From Candidatus Komeilibacteria bacterium (GTDB lineage: Bacteria > Patescibacteriota > Patescibacteriia > UBA1558), in assembly GCA_048538275.1 (NCBI GenBank), contig JBLYPW010000001.1, forward strand, positions 212,919 to 276,918: a stretch of 64,000 bases of DNA, given 5' to 3'. Positions 369-63,534 of the stretch are shown one piece after another. Both the position numbers and the translations under genes were made by a program. Position 1 is the stretch's first letter, and each line of letters opens with the position of its first letter. The notes under the pieces are model-generated. The model did no database searches, was not told the origin of the DNA, and saw only the letters and a list, made by a program, of their open reading frames with translations.

Positions 369-492
369 CAGCATACTTTGTGCTCTTTTTGGGTTTTATT
401 AGCATATTGGCTTATAGGATATATAACTTAATTTTAGCCAAAGGCTGACCAACCTTTGGTTGGGATTAGAGCGTTCACCCCGTTAAATCTTG

Positions 493-590
493 GGCGTATA
501 GCTCCCCGCACCACTCACTGCGTTCGTTAGCGGGGCAGGCAGTTGGTAGATCCGCCAGTTGGCGGACTCTTAAGCAAACGGTCGCAGTAT
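493..590 (+). repeat. pseudo-tRNA 5' fragment (13 nt identical to the tRNA-Val 5' end) fused to a conserved 38-nt GC hairpin element, ~100 nt upstream of tRNA-Val
   Basis: gggcgtatagctc at 493-505 equals tRNA-Val positions 1-13. It is followed by ccccgcaccactcactgcgttcgttagcggggcaggcag, whose near-identical copy lies in the same arrangement upstream of tRNA-Lys (62063-62113, minus strand). A degenerate D-loop-like AGTTGGTAGA follows. Confidence 0.6.
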
Positions 591-607
591 TAATAAAATA
601 AAATCTT

Positions 608-684
608 GGGCGTATAGCTCAGTTGGTTAGAGCGCTACATTCACATTGTAGAAGTCTCAGGTTCAAATCCTGATACGCCCACCA
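608..684 (+). tRNA. tRNA-Val (anticodon CAC)
   Basis: Manual cloverleaf: acceptor gggcgta/tacgccc, D arm gctc-agttggtta-gagc, anticodon loop ttCACat, T arm tcagg-ttcaaat-cctga, encoded CCA. Confidence 0.85.
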
Positions 685-701
685 TTAATAGCCCAATTTA
701 A

Positions 702-727
702 CGGGGCAAGTTCACATTGTAGAAATC
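702..727 (+). repeat. second tRNA-Val-derived fragment: the 3' end of the 38-nt element (cggggcaag) fused to the tRNA-Val anticodon-arm sequence ttcacattgtagaa
   Basis: Direct sequence comparison with tRNA-Val 639-652 and with the element at 529-537. Confidence 0.5.
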
Positions 728-872
728 AGAGTTTGTTGTTTTCTCATGTTTACCACGTTTGTAGATACATTGTCATCGCTCTTATGATATGCAAAAATTT
801 GTTGGTTTAAAATGAGTTAGTCATTATTGCACCAAAACATATTTATTATTTTATAAACATATATATAATTCA

Positions 873-1538: not shown

Positions 1539-2846
1539 ATGGTAGCTAAAAAAGAAAAAAAAGCTTTTCAATTAGTCAGAGGAATGAAAGATATTTTGCC
1601 CGAAGATCAAAGATATTGGCAATATATTCGCAATACTTTAATGCAATTAGCGGCGGATTATAATTATCAGCGGATTGACACGCCAATTTTGGAATTTACT
1701 AAGTTGTTTAATCGTTCGGTTGGTAATTTTACTGACATAGTGGAAAAGGAAATGTATTCTTTCCAAGATCAGGGAAAAGAGCAGCTGAGCTTGCGACCGG
1801 AGTTAACGGCTGGCGTAGTGCGAGCTTATATAGAACACGGTATGATTAATTTACCCCAGCCGGTAAAGTTATTTTATATCGGTCCTTGTTTTCGTTATGA
1901 TCGGCCGCAGAGTGGTCGCCAACGTCAGTTTTGGCAATTTGGCTTTGAATCCATCGGTGAGGGCGGACCTATTGTTGACGCTCAGATTATCAATATGGGT
2001 TATAAGTTTTTTCGGCGCCTAAACCTAGACGTGACAGTGCAGATCAATAGCTTGGGTTGCATAGAGTGTCGCCCGACATATCATGAGGTGTTATTGGATT
2101 TTTTAAAAGGTAAAAAAAATCAGTTATGTGATGACTGCAAGCGTCGCGTGAATAAAAATCCATTACGTGTTTTGGACTGTAAAGAGGATACTTGTCAGGC
2201 GATAGTGGCTGATGCTCCTCAACAAGTTGATTATCTTTGTGATGAATGCCGGCAACATTTTGTAGCCACCCTAGAATATCTTGATGAATTGGAAGTGCCC
2301 TACAATTTAAATCCCAAGATAGTACGCGGTTTGGACTATTATACGAGGACTGCTTTTGAATTTACTGCCACCGATGATGATGAGAATAGGCAAAATGCTT
2401 TAGGTGGCGGTGGGCGTTATGATGGCTTGGTGGAAGAATTGGGCGGTCGGCCAACACCAGCAGTTGGCTTGGGGATTGGTATTGAACGTGTGGTGCGGGC
2501 TTTGCGTCATTATGATATCAAAGTCCCAGAACAAGAAGTCTATGATGTTTTTGTAGCTCAACTGGGCAAGGAAGCACGCAAGCAATGTTTGTCTCTTTAT
2601 GAAAAACTTTTAGACGCTGGCATTCGGGTAGTAGAAAATTTTGCCAAGGAAGGTTTGAAACCACAATTAGAACTAGCTAATAAACTGGGAGTAAAATATG
2701 CTTTATTGTTAGGGCAAAAAGAAATAGTAGATGGCACCATCTTAATTCGCGATATGGAAGGTGGTATCCAGGAAGTAGTTGATTATAATAAGGTAGTGCT
2801 TGAGTTAAAAAAGAGGCTAAAAGCCAAAGAAGTTGAAGAAGTATAA
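1539..2846 (+). CDS. hisS: histidyl-tRNA synthetase
   Basis: Class II aaRS motifs: GPCFRYDRPQ..RQFWQFGFE, GGGGRYDGL, and a C-terminal anticodon-binding domain. Confidence 0.9.
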   Translation: MVAKKEKKAFQLVRGMKDILPEDQRYWQYIRNTLMQLAADYNYQRIDTPILEFTKLFNRSVGNFTDIVEKEMYSFQDQGKEQLSLRPELTAGVVRAYIEHGMINLPQPVKLFYIGPCFRYDRPQSGRQRQFWQFGFESIGEGGPIVDAQIINMGYKFFRRLNLDVTVQINSLGCIECRPTYHEVLLDFLKGKKNQLCDDCKRRVNKNPLRVLDCKEDTCQAIVADAPQQVDYLCDECRQHFVATLEYLDELEVPYNLNPKIVRGLDYYTRTAFEFTATDDDENRQNALGGGGRYDGLVEELGGRPTPAVGLGIGIERVVRALRHYDIKVPEQEVYDVFVAQLGKEARKQCLSLYEKLLDAGIRVVENFAKEGLKPQLELANKLGVKYALLLGQKEIVDGTILIRDMEGGIQEVVDYNKVVLELKKRLKAKEVEEV

Positions 2847-3687: not shown

Positions 3688-5634
3688 ATGCTAAAATTTT
3701 TTGACATGATGAAAAAAAAGAGAACCGCTGTTTTGTTATCTTTATTGATTGCAGCGGTTCTTTTTTTGTGGGCAATGGGTGTGCAGGCGGTCAATGATTT
3801 GGGCTTGAGTACGGCTCAGCAAATTGGTTTGGGCACGACTCCTTTGCCGGATATTGTAGTCAATGTCGTGCATGTGTTTTTGGGATTGCTGGGCTTGTTA
3901 GCGGTCATTTTTGTATTATATGGCGGCTTTGTTTGGATGACGGCCGGTGGCAACCCTGATAAAATAAGTCAAGCAAAAAAGATATTGATTAATACGGTCA
4001 TCGGCATAGTGATTATATTGTCTTCGTATGCTTTGACAGAATTTTTATTTAGACAATTTGGCTGGGTTACTGGATTACAAAATAATGTGGTGAATCAGTC
4101 ACGCGATAACTCTTATTATTATAGTGGTGGCTTGGCCGGCGGTATTATTCGGGCACATTATCCTCAACGTGGCGATGTTGATGTACCGCGCAATGTTGCT
4201 ATTGCCATTACTTTTAAAGAAGCTATTGATCCGACCACCATTATTGGCGACGACGGTAAGATAATTGTTGACAATGTCAGTATTAGCACCTTAGACGGCG
4301 CGGCTCTAACTGATATTAGCGTTAGCACGGTGGATAATTTAACTTTTATATTGCGACCGGATCAGTGGCTGGGCAATGATCAGGCGGCGGTTTGGTATCA
4401 AGTAGGTTTGCTTTCCGGCATTCAAAAAAGCAATGGCGACCCGGCTTTTGGTCCTTTAGGAAATTATAGTTGGCAATTTGCCACTAGCACTGAAGCAGAT
4501 ACGACACCTCCTCAAGTAACGAGTATTACGCCCAGCGCCGATAGTACTGAGCCGCGTAATGTAGCCGTGCAGATTAACTTTAATGAGCCGGTTGATCCTA
4601 CTAGTGCCAGCGGTGATAGTAATAATTTTTCTAATATTATACTTAGTGATATGTCTGATCAAATAGTATCAGGCACTTATACTATAACCAATCAGTACCG
4701 TACCGTAGAATTTTTAACTAATGATTTGTGTGGTCAAAATTCTTGTGGTGATGATGTCTATTGTTTGCCGGCAGACGAATTATTAAACGCTTTGATCAAA
4801 GCCGCCAGCGTGGGTGTCTTACCTTATGACGGCGTGGTGGACATGGCGGGTAATAGTTTAGATGGCAATGCTAATGGTCAAGCGGAAGGATCTTCTACTG
4901 ATGATTATGGCTGGAATTTTAATACCACCAATGACATTGATATTACGGCACCACAAGTTAAAGAAGTTACTCCAGATACTTCAGCCAATGGTATTAGTAC
5001 TCGTGCTAGAGTACGGGCTGATTTTAATAAGCCTATGCTGTTGAGCTCTATTAATGGTGACTCTATGCAAATAGATCAAGGAGTGAATTATTGGATCAAT
5101 AGTACGATTCAGGATAATACTACCATGAGTTATATTAATCACGATGAATTTATTACGCAGACTACTTATCATCCTCGTATTACCAATGCCTGTCGCGATA
5201 TTTACCAAAATTGTTTTAATCCGCCGCAGGGTCCCAATGAATGGCTGATTTCTCCGACGGGCGATTGGGCCTGGATAGATGGTACTACTAGTGGTGATAT
5301 TGCTAGCGATTCATTGGGTACTAGCTTGACCCTAAGCGCTGGTAATAGTAGTGGCGCTTGGGTATCAGCCGCTATGAGTGCTGATGCGCCAGTAGCTGTG
5401 ATGGCTGTTTTTGCTCAGGATTTGTTGGATAATGGTAGTCAGACGCAGATTTTTGTGCGTAGCGCCAATACCATTGCCAATCTAAATAATGCAACCTGGA
5501 TGGCAGTAGGTTATGACGGACAGCTCAATTTGCCTGCGGCGAATTATTGGCAACTCAAAGCAGAATTAAGTAGCGTGGCAGATGATAGCGTGCCTACAAT
5601 TTTTCAAATTAGCCTTAATATTGATAAATCTTAA
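3688..5634 (+). CDS. surface protein: signal peptide, then a T4SS-pilin-like (VirB2/TrbC-type) two-helix module, then three SbsA-type Ig-like (Big_5-like) domains
   Basis: Signal peptide. Hydrophobic hairpin ..HVFLGLLGLLAVIFVLYGGFVWMTAGGNPDKISQAKKILINTVIGIVIILSSYALTEF. Repeated PRNVA(I/V)xIxFxExIDP Ig-like units. Stop/start overlap (TAATG) with the next gene. Confidence 0.8.
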   Translation: MLKFFDMMKKKRTAVLLSLLIAAVLFLWAMGVQAVNDLGLSTAQQIGLGTTPLPDIVVNVVHVFLGLLGLLAVIFVLYGGFVWMTAGGNPDKISQAKKILINTVIGIVIILSSYALTEFLFRQFGWVTGLQNNVVNQSRDNSYYYSGGLAGGIIRAHYPQRGDVDVPRNVAIAITFKEAIDPTTIIGDDGKIIVDNVSISTLDGAALTDISVSTVDNLTFILRPDQWLGNDQAAVWYQVGLLSGIQKSNGDPAFGPLGNYSWQFATSTEADTTPPQVTSITPSADSTEPRNVAVQINFNEPVDPTSASGDSNNFSNIILSDMSDQIVSGTYTITNQYRTVEFLTNDLCGQNSCGDDVYCLPADELLNALIKAASVGVLPYDGVVDMAGNSLDGNANGQAEGSSTDDYGWNFNTTNDIDITAPQVKEVTPDTSANGISTRARVRADFNKPMLLSSINGDSMQIDQGVNYWINSTIQDNTTMSYINHDEFITQTTYHPRITNACRDIYQNCFNPPQGPNEWLISPTGDWAWIDGTTSGDIASDSLGTSLTLSAGNSSGAWVSAAMSADAPVAVMAVFAQDLLDNGSQTQIFVRSANTIANLNNATWMAVGYDGQLNLPAANYWQLKAELSSVADDSVPTIFQISLNIDKS

Positions 5635-35336: not shown

Positions 35337-35413
35337 CGGGGTGTAGCGCAGTTGGCTAGCGCGTACGCATGGGGTGCGTGAGGTCGCGGGTTCGAGTCCC
35401 GCCACCCCGACCA
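35337..35413 (+). tRNA. tRNA-Pro (anticodon GGG)
   Basis: Manual cloverleaf: acceptor cggggtg/caccccg, anticodon loop atGGGgt, T arm gcggg-ttcgagt-cccgc, encoded CCA. Confidence 0.8.
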
Positions 35414-35732
35414 GATTAAACTTTTTTCAAAATCAGAGGCGTTTTGTTGCTCGTTCGCCGCGTTTCCGTCCCGCCTGCGCGGGGCTTCGTTCGCATTTTT
35501 CTCTATATTAAGGTTAAAGCTTTGAAATTTTTGCAGATCAAATGAAGCTGTATTTAAATAAGAGGATAAGGCAGTTAATACCATTATTACTTATCTGCAG
35601 GCCAAGCAAATCAAGAGTCAAAACGAGTGATATGTTATAATACTTATATGAATGTTACAATGCTGTATTGGTAAATTTTTATCAAATTTATATTTGTATC
35701 ATTTGCATTGTTAAATTATTAATTACTAATAT

Positions 35733-61658: not shown

Positions 61659-61796
61659 ATGGTAAAAATAGTTGATTGAACGATGTTATGGGGCCTTAAA
61701 TTGCTTCTCTATTTTAAGTAAAAAGTCAGGATAAAGCAAGGGTTTATTATGCAGACATTTTCCACCTATTAATAACAATTTTTTGTTAATAAAAAA

Positions 61797-61836: not shown

Positions 61837-61907
61837 GAAAACAAGAATTCGCTTGAACGGCGAAGTGGTTGCGCCTTATGCGCAAGTACATAATTGTGAG
61901 TAAGAAG

Positions 61908-61984
61908 TGGTACGCGCAGAGGGATTCGAACCCCCGACCATCTGCTTAAAAGGCAGCTGCTCTACCAGGCTGAGCTATGCGCGC
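61908..61984 (-). tRNA. tRNA-Lys (anticodon UUU)
   Basis: Reverse complement folds as acceptor GCGCGCA/TGCGCGT (G1-U72), D arm GCTC-AGCCTGGTA-GAGC, anticodon loop cuUUUaa, T arm GGGGG-TTCGAAT-CCCTC, encoded CCA. Confidence 0.8.
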
Positions 61985-62113
61985 CCGTGGAAATAAAATA
62001 TACCTTAGATTATATTAAGAACTTTTAAATAGCCACATAGCCAATGAGCGAAGCCTGGAAGGCTGCTTGCCCCGCAAACGAACACAAGTGAGTGATGCGG
62101 GGAGCTATGCGCG
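61985..62113 (-). repeat. second copy of the pseudo-tRNA-5' plus 38-nt GC hairpin element, upstream (minus strand) of tRNA-Lys
   Basis: The reverse complement of 62063-62113 is cgcgcatagctc + ccccgcatcactcacttgtgttcgtttgcggggcaagcag. The first 12 nt equal the tRNA-Lys 5' end. The 38-nt core has about 5 mismatches to the copy at 506-543. Confidence 0.6.
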
Positions 62114-62260
62114 TTCACGATAAAACGATGGTATTATAGGGGAATGGTAATTTATTGTCAATATCGTTGTTGATAGTATCGTAAAATTGTTTAGATTTTG
62201 TTATAATTATATAGCTTGATCGTATATTTTAAAGGAGAGTTAATTATTAAAGTAAATATT

Positions 62261-63161: not shown

Positions 63162-63284
63162 AATGTAATATGTTTTTTTACAACTGTGTATTATTTAATC
63201 AACAAATGTTAGAGTTTAGATAGGCCCGAGCAGCTTGCGCCGCGTCCGTCTCGGGAGGAAGAGTCGGTTTTCATTTGTGCATAT

Positions 63285-63360
63285 TCTGGAGTAGTTCAAT
63301 TGGTAGAACGCTGCGCTGTTAACGCAGAGGTTGGGGGTTCAAGTCCCTCCTCCAGAGCCA
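63285..63360 (+). tRNA. tRNA-Asn (anticodon GUU)
   Basis: Manual cloverleaf: acceptor tctggag/ctccaga, anticodon loop ctGTTaa, T arm ggggg-ttcaagt-ccctc, encoded CCA. Confidence 0.85.
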
Positions 63361-63398
63361 CATCTGTAGAGACAATTCATGAATTGTCTCTACAGATG
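63361..63398 (+). repeat. perfect 18-bp inverted repeat (hairpin) immediately 3' of tRNA-Asn
   Basis: catctgtagagacaattc-at-gaattgtctctacagatg. Confidence 0.8.
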
Positions 63399-63534
63399 TG
63401 GCTTATTATTTATCCCAAGTACAAGTTTATTTTTTTATTATAATTTTAAAGTTAAGCTATAATAAATAGAGATGCTTAGTTAATGGGTAAAAGTCTATTG
63501 TGTGGTTTTTTAGCTACTATGATATAATTCCTCC

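Follow-up and report, generated by a model that had tools for sequence, protein, structure and literature searches.

The intact tRNA-Lys(UUU) gene of a Candidatus Komeilibacteria (Patescibacteria/CPR) metagenome-assembled genome is preceded by a short repeat of its own 5' end and a GC-rich hairpin, and we consider it moderately likely that this arrangement is a dead tandem copy of the tRNA-Lys gene with a tRNA-targeting hairpin mini-element inserted in its D arm. The hairpin, whose family also occurs in spare tRNA genes of several other Patescibacteria, looks like a small mobile element that targets tRNA genes. Genes for tRNAs are among the most conserved and essential sequences of any genome, and CPR bacteria, whose genomes are known for extreme streamlining, are thought to hold minimal, single-copy tRNA sets. 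The stretch of DNA analysed here (the window; 64,000 nucleotides, 39% GC) contains four tRNA genes according to ARAGORN and Rfam. Nearly all ORFs scanned in the window are housekeeping genes, and a search among them (3.2-36 kb) yielded no transposase, integrase or reverse transcriptase. The features of the window are collected in Table 1; loci used for comparison are designated by L and a number.

Table 1. Features of the tRNA loci in the window. The promoter and the assignment of fragments to dead copies are predictions.
Feature	Position	Strand	Basis or remark
Sigma-70-type promoter, perfect TTGACA-17-TATAAT	62133-62161	-	12/12 consensus
5' stub of putative dead tRNA-Lys copy, nt 2-12, CGCGCATAGCT	62103-62113	-	exact repeat of intact tRNA
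37-nt palindromic element CCCCGCA-TCACTCACTTGTGTTCGTT-TGCGGGG-CAAG	62066-62102	-	between T12 and C13 of putative dead copy
Remainder of putative dead tRNA-Lys copy	61985-62065	-	CAGCCT, small hairpin, then decayed sequence
tRNA-Lys(UUU), intact, without insertion	61908-61984	-	ARAGORN, Rfam
3' trailer of tRNA-Lys	61848-61885	-	mini-hairpin and terminator-like hairpin
Sister stub: 7 nt of leader and nt 1-13 of putative dead tRNA-Val copy	485-504	+	exact repeat
Sister hairpin element, 36 nt, between T12 and C13	504-539	+	R2, 45.7 bits
Remainder of putative dead tRNA-Val copy	540-607	+	CAGTTGG-TAGA (nt 13-24), second palindrome, decayed sequence
tRNA-Val(CAC), intact	608-684	+	ARAGORN, Rfam
Putative third dead tRNA-Val copy, nt 7-56, downstream of intact gene	688-734	+	local alignment
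tRNA-Pro(GGG)	35337-35413	+	ARAGORN, Rfam
tRNA-Asn(GUU)	63285-63360	+	ARAGORN, Rfam

As an earlier, sequence-only reading of this DNA had stated, the 12-nt stub CGCGCATAGCTC (62113-62102, minus strand) agrees base for base, as a direct repeat, with tRNA-Lys nt 2-13 at 61983-61972. The C at 62102 is ambiguous and may be either C13 of the tRNA or the first base of the element. The local alignment score of the stub is reached by 1.3% of shuffled 300-nt flanks. Read directly, the stub agrees with tRNA-Lys at 12/12 positions, compared to 10/12 for tRNA-Val and 7/12 for both tRNA-Asn and tRNA-Pro, and is thus closest to its own neighbour and not equally similar to other tRNAs. The sequence directly 3' of the stub is CCCCGCATCACTCACTTGTGTTCGTTTGCGGGGCAAGCAG (62102-62063). 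Written out, the unit runs from TAGCT through the hairpin, CCCCGCATC...GCGGGGCAAG, into CAGCCT, while the intact tRNA-Lys reads TAGCTCAGCCTGG; the CAGCCT that immediately follows the hairpin corresponds to tRNA-Lys nt 13-18 in the expected register. A small hairpin, AGCCTtccAGGCT (62064-62052, minus strand), follows CAGCCT. Scored with a covariance model built from the element alone, without tRNA flank (R2; a second model, R1, includes the TAGCTC flank), the Lys element reaches 45.1 bits with an E value of 3.7e-08. From the hairpin to the intact gene we measured 81 nt (62065-61985), close to the roughly 85 nt given before.

The TATAAT hexamer of the predicted promoter is followed after 18 nt by tRNA position 1 of the Lys stub, and the same spacing is found before the intact tRNA-Lys in L005, which argues that the copy at the ancestral promoter has the stub as its 5' end. 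A promoter within the spacers, a possibility raised by the earlier reading, was found neither in the Lys spacer, searched on the minus strand for promoter-like sites, nor in the Val spacer. Stub, hairpin and spacer would therefore be transcribed as a leader of the working tRNA, and in the case of tRNA-Lys one transcript would run from the predicted promoter through stub, hairpin element and spacer into the tRNA. At the other end of the gene, the trailer contains a mini-hairpin, TTGCGCataagGCGCAA-CCAC (61885-61865, minus strand), that resembles an acceptor-stem minihelix with a CCA-like tail, its similarity to tRNA not being significant by shuffles, and a terminator-like hairpin at 61864-61848 (minus strand) detected by a terminator scan.

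A second element occupies the same T12/C13 site in a putative dead tRNA-Val copy 61 kb away. Here the stub forms a 20-nt exact repeat (485-504 = 601-620), and the unit runs from TAGCT through CCCCGCACC...GCGGGGCAGG into CAGTTGG-TAGA, with TAGCTCAGTTGGTTAGA in the intact tRNA-Val; CAGTTGGT, immediately 3' of the hairpin, equals tRNA-Val nt 13-20. The core pattern has exactly two matches in the window, at 504-542 (plus strand) and 62063-62102 (minus strand), with 0 expected in shuffles. The 87% identity that we measured between the Lys and Val cores agrees with the earlier figure, and the 38-nt core described earlier is indeed present twice; its last three bases, CAG, are tRNA nt 13-15 and do not belong to the element. 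The spacers of the two units are unrelated, as had been noted, showing neither similarity nor a right-end repeat. Within the dead tRNA-Val copy a second palindrome, TCCGCCagttGGCGGA, is found at 551-566 (plus strand). The alignment of the third dead tRNA-Val copy scores 36.5, a value reached in 0/300 shuffles, and this copy holds the exact element tail CGGGGCAAG at 702-710; CGGGGCARG occurs exactly in the window only at 531, 702 and 62066. The third copy has CCAATTTAACGGGGCAAG, which ends in this tail, in place of nt 13-31.

Around the tRNA-Val locus we also observed an inverted repeat, 478-495/691-706, in which CCCCGTTAAAT(CT)TGGGC faces GCCCAATTTAACGGGG with 16/18 matches. It encloses both the dead copy and the intact tRNA-Val, and its arms pair over a long range when the RNA fold is predicted; the repeat could serve as a processing stem or be an inverted duplication at the level of DNA. 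A nested 'Russian doll' reading of the locus, in which an oldest copy at about 400-477 would have its anticodon loop split by a cassette bounded by CCCCGTTAAAT and ATTTAACGGGG, was dropped since the supposed oldest fragments are not significant against shuffles, the inverted repeat itself being real. Likewise, GTTAAAT/ATTTAAC was considered as an integron attC-like site and rejected, as the window shows no second core site and no adjacent integrase. In other genomes the orthologous Val locus varies: in L006 (HisRS neighbourhood) tRNA-Val stands directly behind the orthologous promoter, i.e. the site is empty; L010 has a degenerate tRNA-Val pseudogene at 4262-4340 that is not called by ARAGORN, and L007 (3755-3944) has no tRNA. 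From the latter two loci, tRNA-Val(CAC) seems dispensable in the clade.

In total, 11 copies of the element were recovered from six genomes, following the pattern 5'-YCCCG...CGGGR-CARG-3' at a length of 36-56 nt. All 11 lie inside tRNA-derived fragments that adjoin an intact tRNA, hereby noting that copies were mostly found by looking near tRNAs and that one of the two discovery scans was stub-anchored; no intact tRNA in any locus examined holds an element. The host tRNAs are Lys, Val and Arg, with forward elements at 12/13, 21/22 and 24/25 and reversed ones in the T loop. The D-arm sites read (R)TAG-N-N^C-A, i.e. U8-A9-G10..^C13 and the analogous TAGAA^C25, and the T-loop site is GGTTCG^A (GGAAT^CGAACC on the bottom strand). 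The alignment of the 11 copies has in common 5'-YCCCG, the internal motifs TC(R)C and T.CGTTC, and CGGGR-CARG-3'. In the terminal stem 93% of the cells are paired (slid controls: 32-61%), and eight stem cells carry compensatory changes, which 0/500 shuffles reach. Predicted folds consist of a 3-bp helix, a 2-nt bulge and a 7-bp helix; the fold z-scores of isolated hairpins are unremarkable. Applied to both strands of the window and ten loci (about 147 kb), R2 recovers only the 11 copies, at 27-52 bits, with nothing else above 12 bits and no copy outside tRNA-derived sequence.

Broader searches gave little. A metagenome scan for the element yielded one real match, L011, whose sequence is identical to L012 and L014. 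The sole match of a stub-independent pattern scan of GTDB species genomes was a chance match inside an Acidobacteria coding sequence, viral contigs scanned with three hairpin subfamilies and a stub-anchored pattern gave no matches, and no Rfam family matches the hairpin element or the stub-hairpin units. The copy number observed is small. The Arg element of L011 is 84% identical to the Lys element of the window (84-86% for both window copies). Beyond its own clade, no protein exceeding 69% identity to the XerD of L011 is present in a database that includes the proteins of the window's genome; that the elements agree at 84-86% in spite of this points to a mobile element.

The tRNA-Arg loci provide the remaining evidence. 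In L011, GTCCCTGTAGCT is followed by the hairpin, CCCCGCACAACTCACTACGTTCGTATGCGGGGCAAG, and by CAACTGGATAG, just upstream of an intact tRNA-Arg(UCU). The sequences after the hairpins of L011 (CAACTGGATAG) and L017 (GAGCAACAGCCT) are both tRNA sequence resuming. L015, L016 and L017 were obtained via the adjacent XerD-like gene, which is 88-94% identical; this recombinase gene stands directly upstream of all Arg arrays, and a large serine recombinase lies near that of L016. In L015 a hairpin follows nt 24 of a dead type A tRNA-Arg copy, then comes the intact type B gene, and the 3' fragment behind it has a reversed element in its T loop (GGTTCG^A). L011 is reciprocal to L015, with type B dead and type A intact. 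L016 has, at 24/25, a variant with a perfect 17-bp stem whose ends are unchanged (CCCCGTAC...GTACGGGGCAAG); its 12/13 site holds a different palindrome, and two 3' fragments have reversed elements in their T loops. In L017 two dead copies precede the intact gene: one has the element at 21/22, with perfect tRNA sequence to either side (21 and 12 nt), and in the other the element begins with T, which places the junction at A24^C25 without any duplication. L011 and L017 have in common a truncated type B fragment joined to the same downstream leader, yet their elements belong to different subfamilies and occupy different sites. Thus, the fragment must be older than the insertions, and the different subfamilies and sites in such close relatives argue for independent insertions.

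Several side observations concern these arrays. They comprise two to four copies of tRNA-Arg(UCU) downstream of the XerD-like gene, of types A and B, with a leader and a trailer specific to each. The intact member of the array differs between L011/L012, L015, L016 and L017, and the acceptor stems of the intact tRNA-Arg genes differ by compensatory changes (GCCCCTG, GCCCCCA, GTCCCTG, GTCCTCA). The second palindrome type, TCCGCC...GGCGGA, was seen only in dead copies, at window 551-566 (plus strand; one window occurrence versus 0.02 expected) and at L016 1202-1236, in the latter case as part of 69 nt inserted into a dead tRNA-Arg copy at T12^C13; this type may represent a second family with the same target.

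In relatives of the window, compared via the DnaB neighbourhood, the promoter of L005 and L002 is found directly before tRNA-Lys, with neither stub nor hairpin, so that both are empty sites. L004, at about 63% protein identity to the window in the Lys region, possesses a homologous Lys unit: its stub is GCGCGCATAGCT, its hairpin TCCCGCC...GGCGGGA has diverged with compensatory changes at two stem pairs, and the decayed tRNA 3' end is still recognisable as CGCGCTTACCAC. The unit aligns with that of the window over its whole length, including 14/14 identical positions in CTTCCAGGCTTCGC, and its second hairpin is kept with a G-U change. Such conservation exceeds what dead sequence should show and suggests function or recent lateral transfer. 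Downstream of its tRNA-Lys, L004 has a 3' fragment with an insertion in the T arm. Apart from this, the tRNA-Lys unit with its promoter (window 61848-62161) is opposite in orientation to L004 3400-3830 and L005 3740-3900; the inverted unit lies between a SIMPL-domain gene and dnaB and represents a local inversion. Two transposase genes (rve/IS481-like and Transposase_mut/IS256-like) stand immediately upstream of the empty-site tRNA-Lys in L002 (1085-3140).

We propose that the Lys locus consists of two layers. The first would be a decayed extra tRNA-Lys gene, lying in tandem immediately upstream of the working copy at the ancestral promoter and retaining identity with the working gene only in its first 12-13 nt. 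The second would be the 37-nt GC-rich palindrome, put into the D arm of this dead copy at T12/C13. Hereby, a whole tRNA gene with its leader would have been duplicated and later decayed, rather than 12 nt having been duplicated by an insertion. The stub would match the neighbouring tRNA because the insertion took place in a paralogue of that gene, and as the hairpin is flanked left and right by tRNA sequence, the insert comprises no more than the hairpin (36-37 nt). The extra tRNA copies might have arisen by tandem duplication; another candidate is incoming DNA recombining at tRNA anchors, the host carrying a ComEC-type DNA-uptake protein. The element probably is, or recently was, mobile, with an apparent preference for D-arm and T-loop sequence of tRNA genes. 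As an insertion into the only working copy would presumably be lethal, elements would persist in redundant tRNA copies alone. Together with the spacer, stub and element would constitute a long 5' leader that RNase P may cut off. In line with mobility, the occurrence of both orientations points to an element acting at the DNA level, and patchy presence with empty orthologous sites, together with both orientations and several subfamilies, points to a miniature insertion element. Weighing against a mobile element are the lack of a clear target-site duplication (at most 1 nt), which sets it apart from a textbook MITE, the small number of copies, most of them found by looking near tRNAs, the absence of a transposase, integrase or reverse transcriptase from the window ORFs scanned (3.2-36 kb), and the conservation of the Lys unit between the window and L004, with CTTCCAGGCTTCGC unchanged at about 63% protein identity.

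The stub co-varies with the local tRNA, as first noticed for the window, not only for Lys and Val but also for Arg in other genomes, and this excludes a static dispersed repeat. The sequence-only reading had favoured a mechanism that copies the 5' end of the target tRNA, such as duplication on insertion. Put into concrete terms, a mobile element of about 115-130 nt, with the hairpin as its left end, would have inserted after nt 13, and a target-site duplication of 12-20 bp would have rebuilt the intact tRNA. The exact direct repeats that flank hairpin and spacer (12 nt in Lys, 20 nt in Val), the position of the stub at the ancestral promoter and the empty sites in relatives are all compatible with this. 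However, the sequence after the hairpin is tRNA sequence resuming in Lys, Val and Arg and co-varying with the local tRNA, so that the spacer is not element DNA. The repeats do not abut both ends of one conserved unit; the right repeat abuts decayed tRNA-derived sequence, and the unrelated Val and Lys spacers lack a conserved right end. Moreover, hairpins at 21/22, 24/25 and, reversed, in T loops come without any duplication of a 5' end, the fragment common to L011 and L017 is older than its hairpins, and the leaders upstream of both copies are also similar, as gene duplication predicts. We therefore regard duplication upon insertion as highly improbable.

Two further explanations deserve consideration. 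The fragments could be att-site scars of tRNA-targeting integrative elements or of small tRNA cassettes, each integration splitting the resident tRNA and supplying a new copy, and the hairpins could be remnants of recombination sites. With 5' fragments upstream and 3' fragments downstream of the intact gene, Arg loci that look nested and reciprocal (A split around B in L015, B around A in L011), the XerD-like gene upstream of all Arg arrays, the large serine recombinase near the L016 array, the inversion of the whole tRNA-Lys unit relative to L004 and L005, and an archaeal precedent in which a mobile element left behind the 5' part of a tRNA (PMC3293823), it may well be that the tRNA fragments originated as such scars. 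As an account that includes the hairpins we find it rather unlikely, because the hairpin has tRNA sequence on both sides and interrupts the fragment instead of marking a junction of tRNA and foreign DNA. No integrase was found between the stub and tRNA-Lys or among the window ORFs scanned, the elements would measure only about 100 nt, the XerD gene is syntenic and housekeeping-like, and the nested Val reading is not significant by shuffles. Alternatively, the unit might be a functional tRNA-derived leader in which the stub competes for the 3' acceptor strand and the hairpin binds a protein, thereby regulating tRNA processing or stability. Co-transcription from a consensus promoter, the compensatory stem changes, loop motifs conserved across distant genomes, and the retention of CTTCCAGGCTTCGC (14/14) and of the second hairpin, G-U change included, between the window and L004 speak for a function, and modelled minimum-energy folds of the window and L004 Lys units pair the stub with the 3' acceptor strand. 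Yet the unit is missing from the orthologous loci of tRNA-Lys in L002 and L005 and of tRNA-Val in L006, position and subfamily vary among close relatives, indicating rapid turnover, reversed copies occur in 3' fragments downstream of tRNAs, and elements are present in clearly dead fragments. There is also no Rfam match, and the z-scores of isolated hairpins are unremarkable, so that we judge a functional leader to be distinctly unlikely.

If the preferred reading of a mini-element in dead tRNA copies is correct, the element resembles MITEs and REP sequences in its short length and lack of coding sequence, in terminal inverted repeats that fold into a hairpin, in encoding no enzyme, and in comprising several diverged subfamilies that occur in both orientations and patchily among relatives. 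Its inverted repeats, YCCCG(N)A...T(N)CGGGR, span 7-16 bp with 93% of stem cells paired. In contrast to most MITEs it is much smaller (36-56 nt) and of low copy number in the DNA examined, and in place of a target-site duplication of fixed length there is at most a 1-nt ambiguity (C), with none in the second dead copy of L017. Unlike MITEs and REPs, it has so far been found only in sequence derived from tRNA genes, at defined D-arm and T-loop positions. REP/RAYT systems are characterised by a 20-40-nt palindrome, a 5' GTAG head and a high extragenic copy number; the palindrome size fits, whereas the head is YCCCG and there are 2-3 copies in 64 kb, all in tRNA-derived sequence. Elements of the IS200/IS605 type have a subterminal hairpin at either end, insert without duplication on the 3' side of a fixed tetra- or pentanucleotide and go with a Y1 transposase in the genome; here we found a single hairpin, no duplication, no TnpA among the window ORFs scanned, a loosely conserved left flank (TAGNN^C) and varying targets (GCT^C, GAA^C, ATA^G, AAT^C).

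Fungal mitochondrial GC clusters (e.g. PMC4478555) are GC-rich palindromic mini-elements of AT-rich compact genomes, located in or next to RNA genes with fast turnover between strains; they are numerous and not specific for tRNA arms. The likeness lies in GC-rich palindromes within an AT-rich compact genome, the window having 39% GC, and the difference in the domain of life and the presumed lack of any sequence relation to the hairpin element. Partial tRNA copies are also left by integrative elements, as described for an archaeal tRNA-Thr 5' fragment (PMC3293823) and for prokaryotic tRNA gene fragments (PMC9897764). As here, such copies are identical to one end of a nearby intact tRNA, 5' copies lying upstream and 3' copies downstream. 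In our case, however, they lie tens of nucleotides and not kilobases from the intact gene, without an integrase-bearing element in between, and the conserved hairpin is set within the fragment, not at its edge. Among archaea, the Thermoproteales have transposed non-canonical tRNA introns (reviewed in PMC4090602) that are similar in being short related inserts at several non-anticodon positions, including the D and T arms, with signs of spread between tRNA genes. Those introns form bulge-helix-bulge motifs in functional genes and are removed by the archaeal splicing endonuclease, whereas the hairpin element has dead hosts, no bulge-helix-bulge, both orientations and a bacterial host. A tRNA intron, either group I or bulge-helix-bulge, was considered and rejected, since the host copies lack anticodon and T arms, no Rfam intron model matches, and the predicted folds do not form a bulge-helix-bulge motif; the group I introns at position 35/36 of Patescibacteria tRNAs (PMC13011429) are unrelated to the hairpin element.

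More tentatively, Patescibacteria might harbour a class of 36-56-nt palindromes that are specific for tRNA sequence (TAGNN^C in the D arm, and the T loop), insert without target duplication, are moved by an activity acting in trans and help to drive a fast turnover of tRNA loci, a generalisation that we hold to be possible rather than probable. The turnover would be driven by the insertions together with a rapid gain of replacement tRNA copies, giving arrays of one live and several dead copies; in a stronger version, the dead copies would be decoys, sacrificed to insertions that would otherwise strike the essential gene. If insertion is indeed directed at D arms and T loops, these reduced genomes would put up with arrays of dead tRNA copies and reshape them rapidly, the phylum would possess an uncharacterised activity that inserts DNA (or RNA) with specificity for structure or sequence, and the annotation of tRNA fragments and odd tRNA leaders in CPR genomes would need a model of the element. 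Long leaders with a perfect mimic of the tRNA 5' end would furthermore offer a testable case for effects on RNase P processing. In the literature searched, whose coverage is incomplete, we found no description of such elements, and their novelty is provisional.

Finally, some GC-rich features near other tRNA genes of the window were noted. R1 and R2 found no further copies near tRNA-Asn or tRNA-Pro, and the GC-rich hairpins present there are not counted as members. At 63225-63255 (plus strand), 30 nt upstream of tRNA-Asn, lies the hairpin CCCGAG...CTCGGG-AGGAAG; L004 has the related GGCCCGAGC...CCCGCTCACTTGTTGAGCGGGAGGGGCC at the same place (about 2290-2345, minus strand), inside a duplicated terminator-plus-spacer repeat of about 35 nt, and neither element model matches either of these two hairpins. 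Just downstream of tRNA-Pro, a GC-rich stretch (35447-35495, plus strand) contains CCCGCCTGCGCGGGG and CTTCGTTCG, the latter being the loop motif of the hairpin element; the stretch is missed by the element models, and its similarity to tRNA-Pro is not significant. A perfect 20-bp hairpin at 63355-63402 (plus strand), unusually long for a terminator, begins within the 3' end of tRNA-Asn (GCCACATCTGTAGAGACAATTcatgAATTGTCTCTACAGATGTGGC). Upstream of dnaB, at about 61745-61775 in the window (minus strand) and about 3868-3900 in L004, we observed the conserved motif AGGTGGAAAA-N-G-Y-CTGCATAAT, weaker in L005 and L002, which is likely a promoter or regulatory site.
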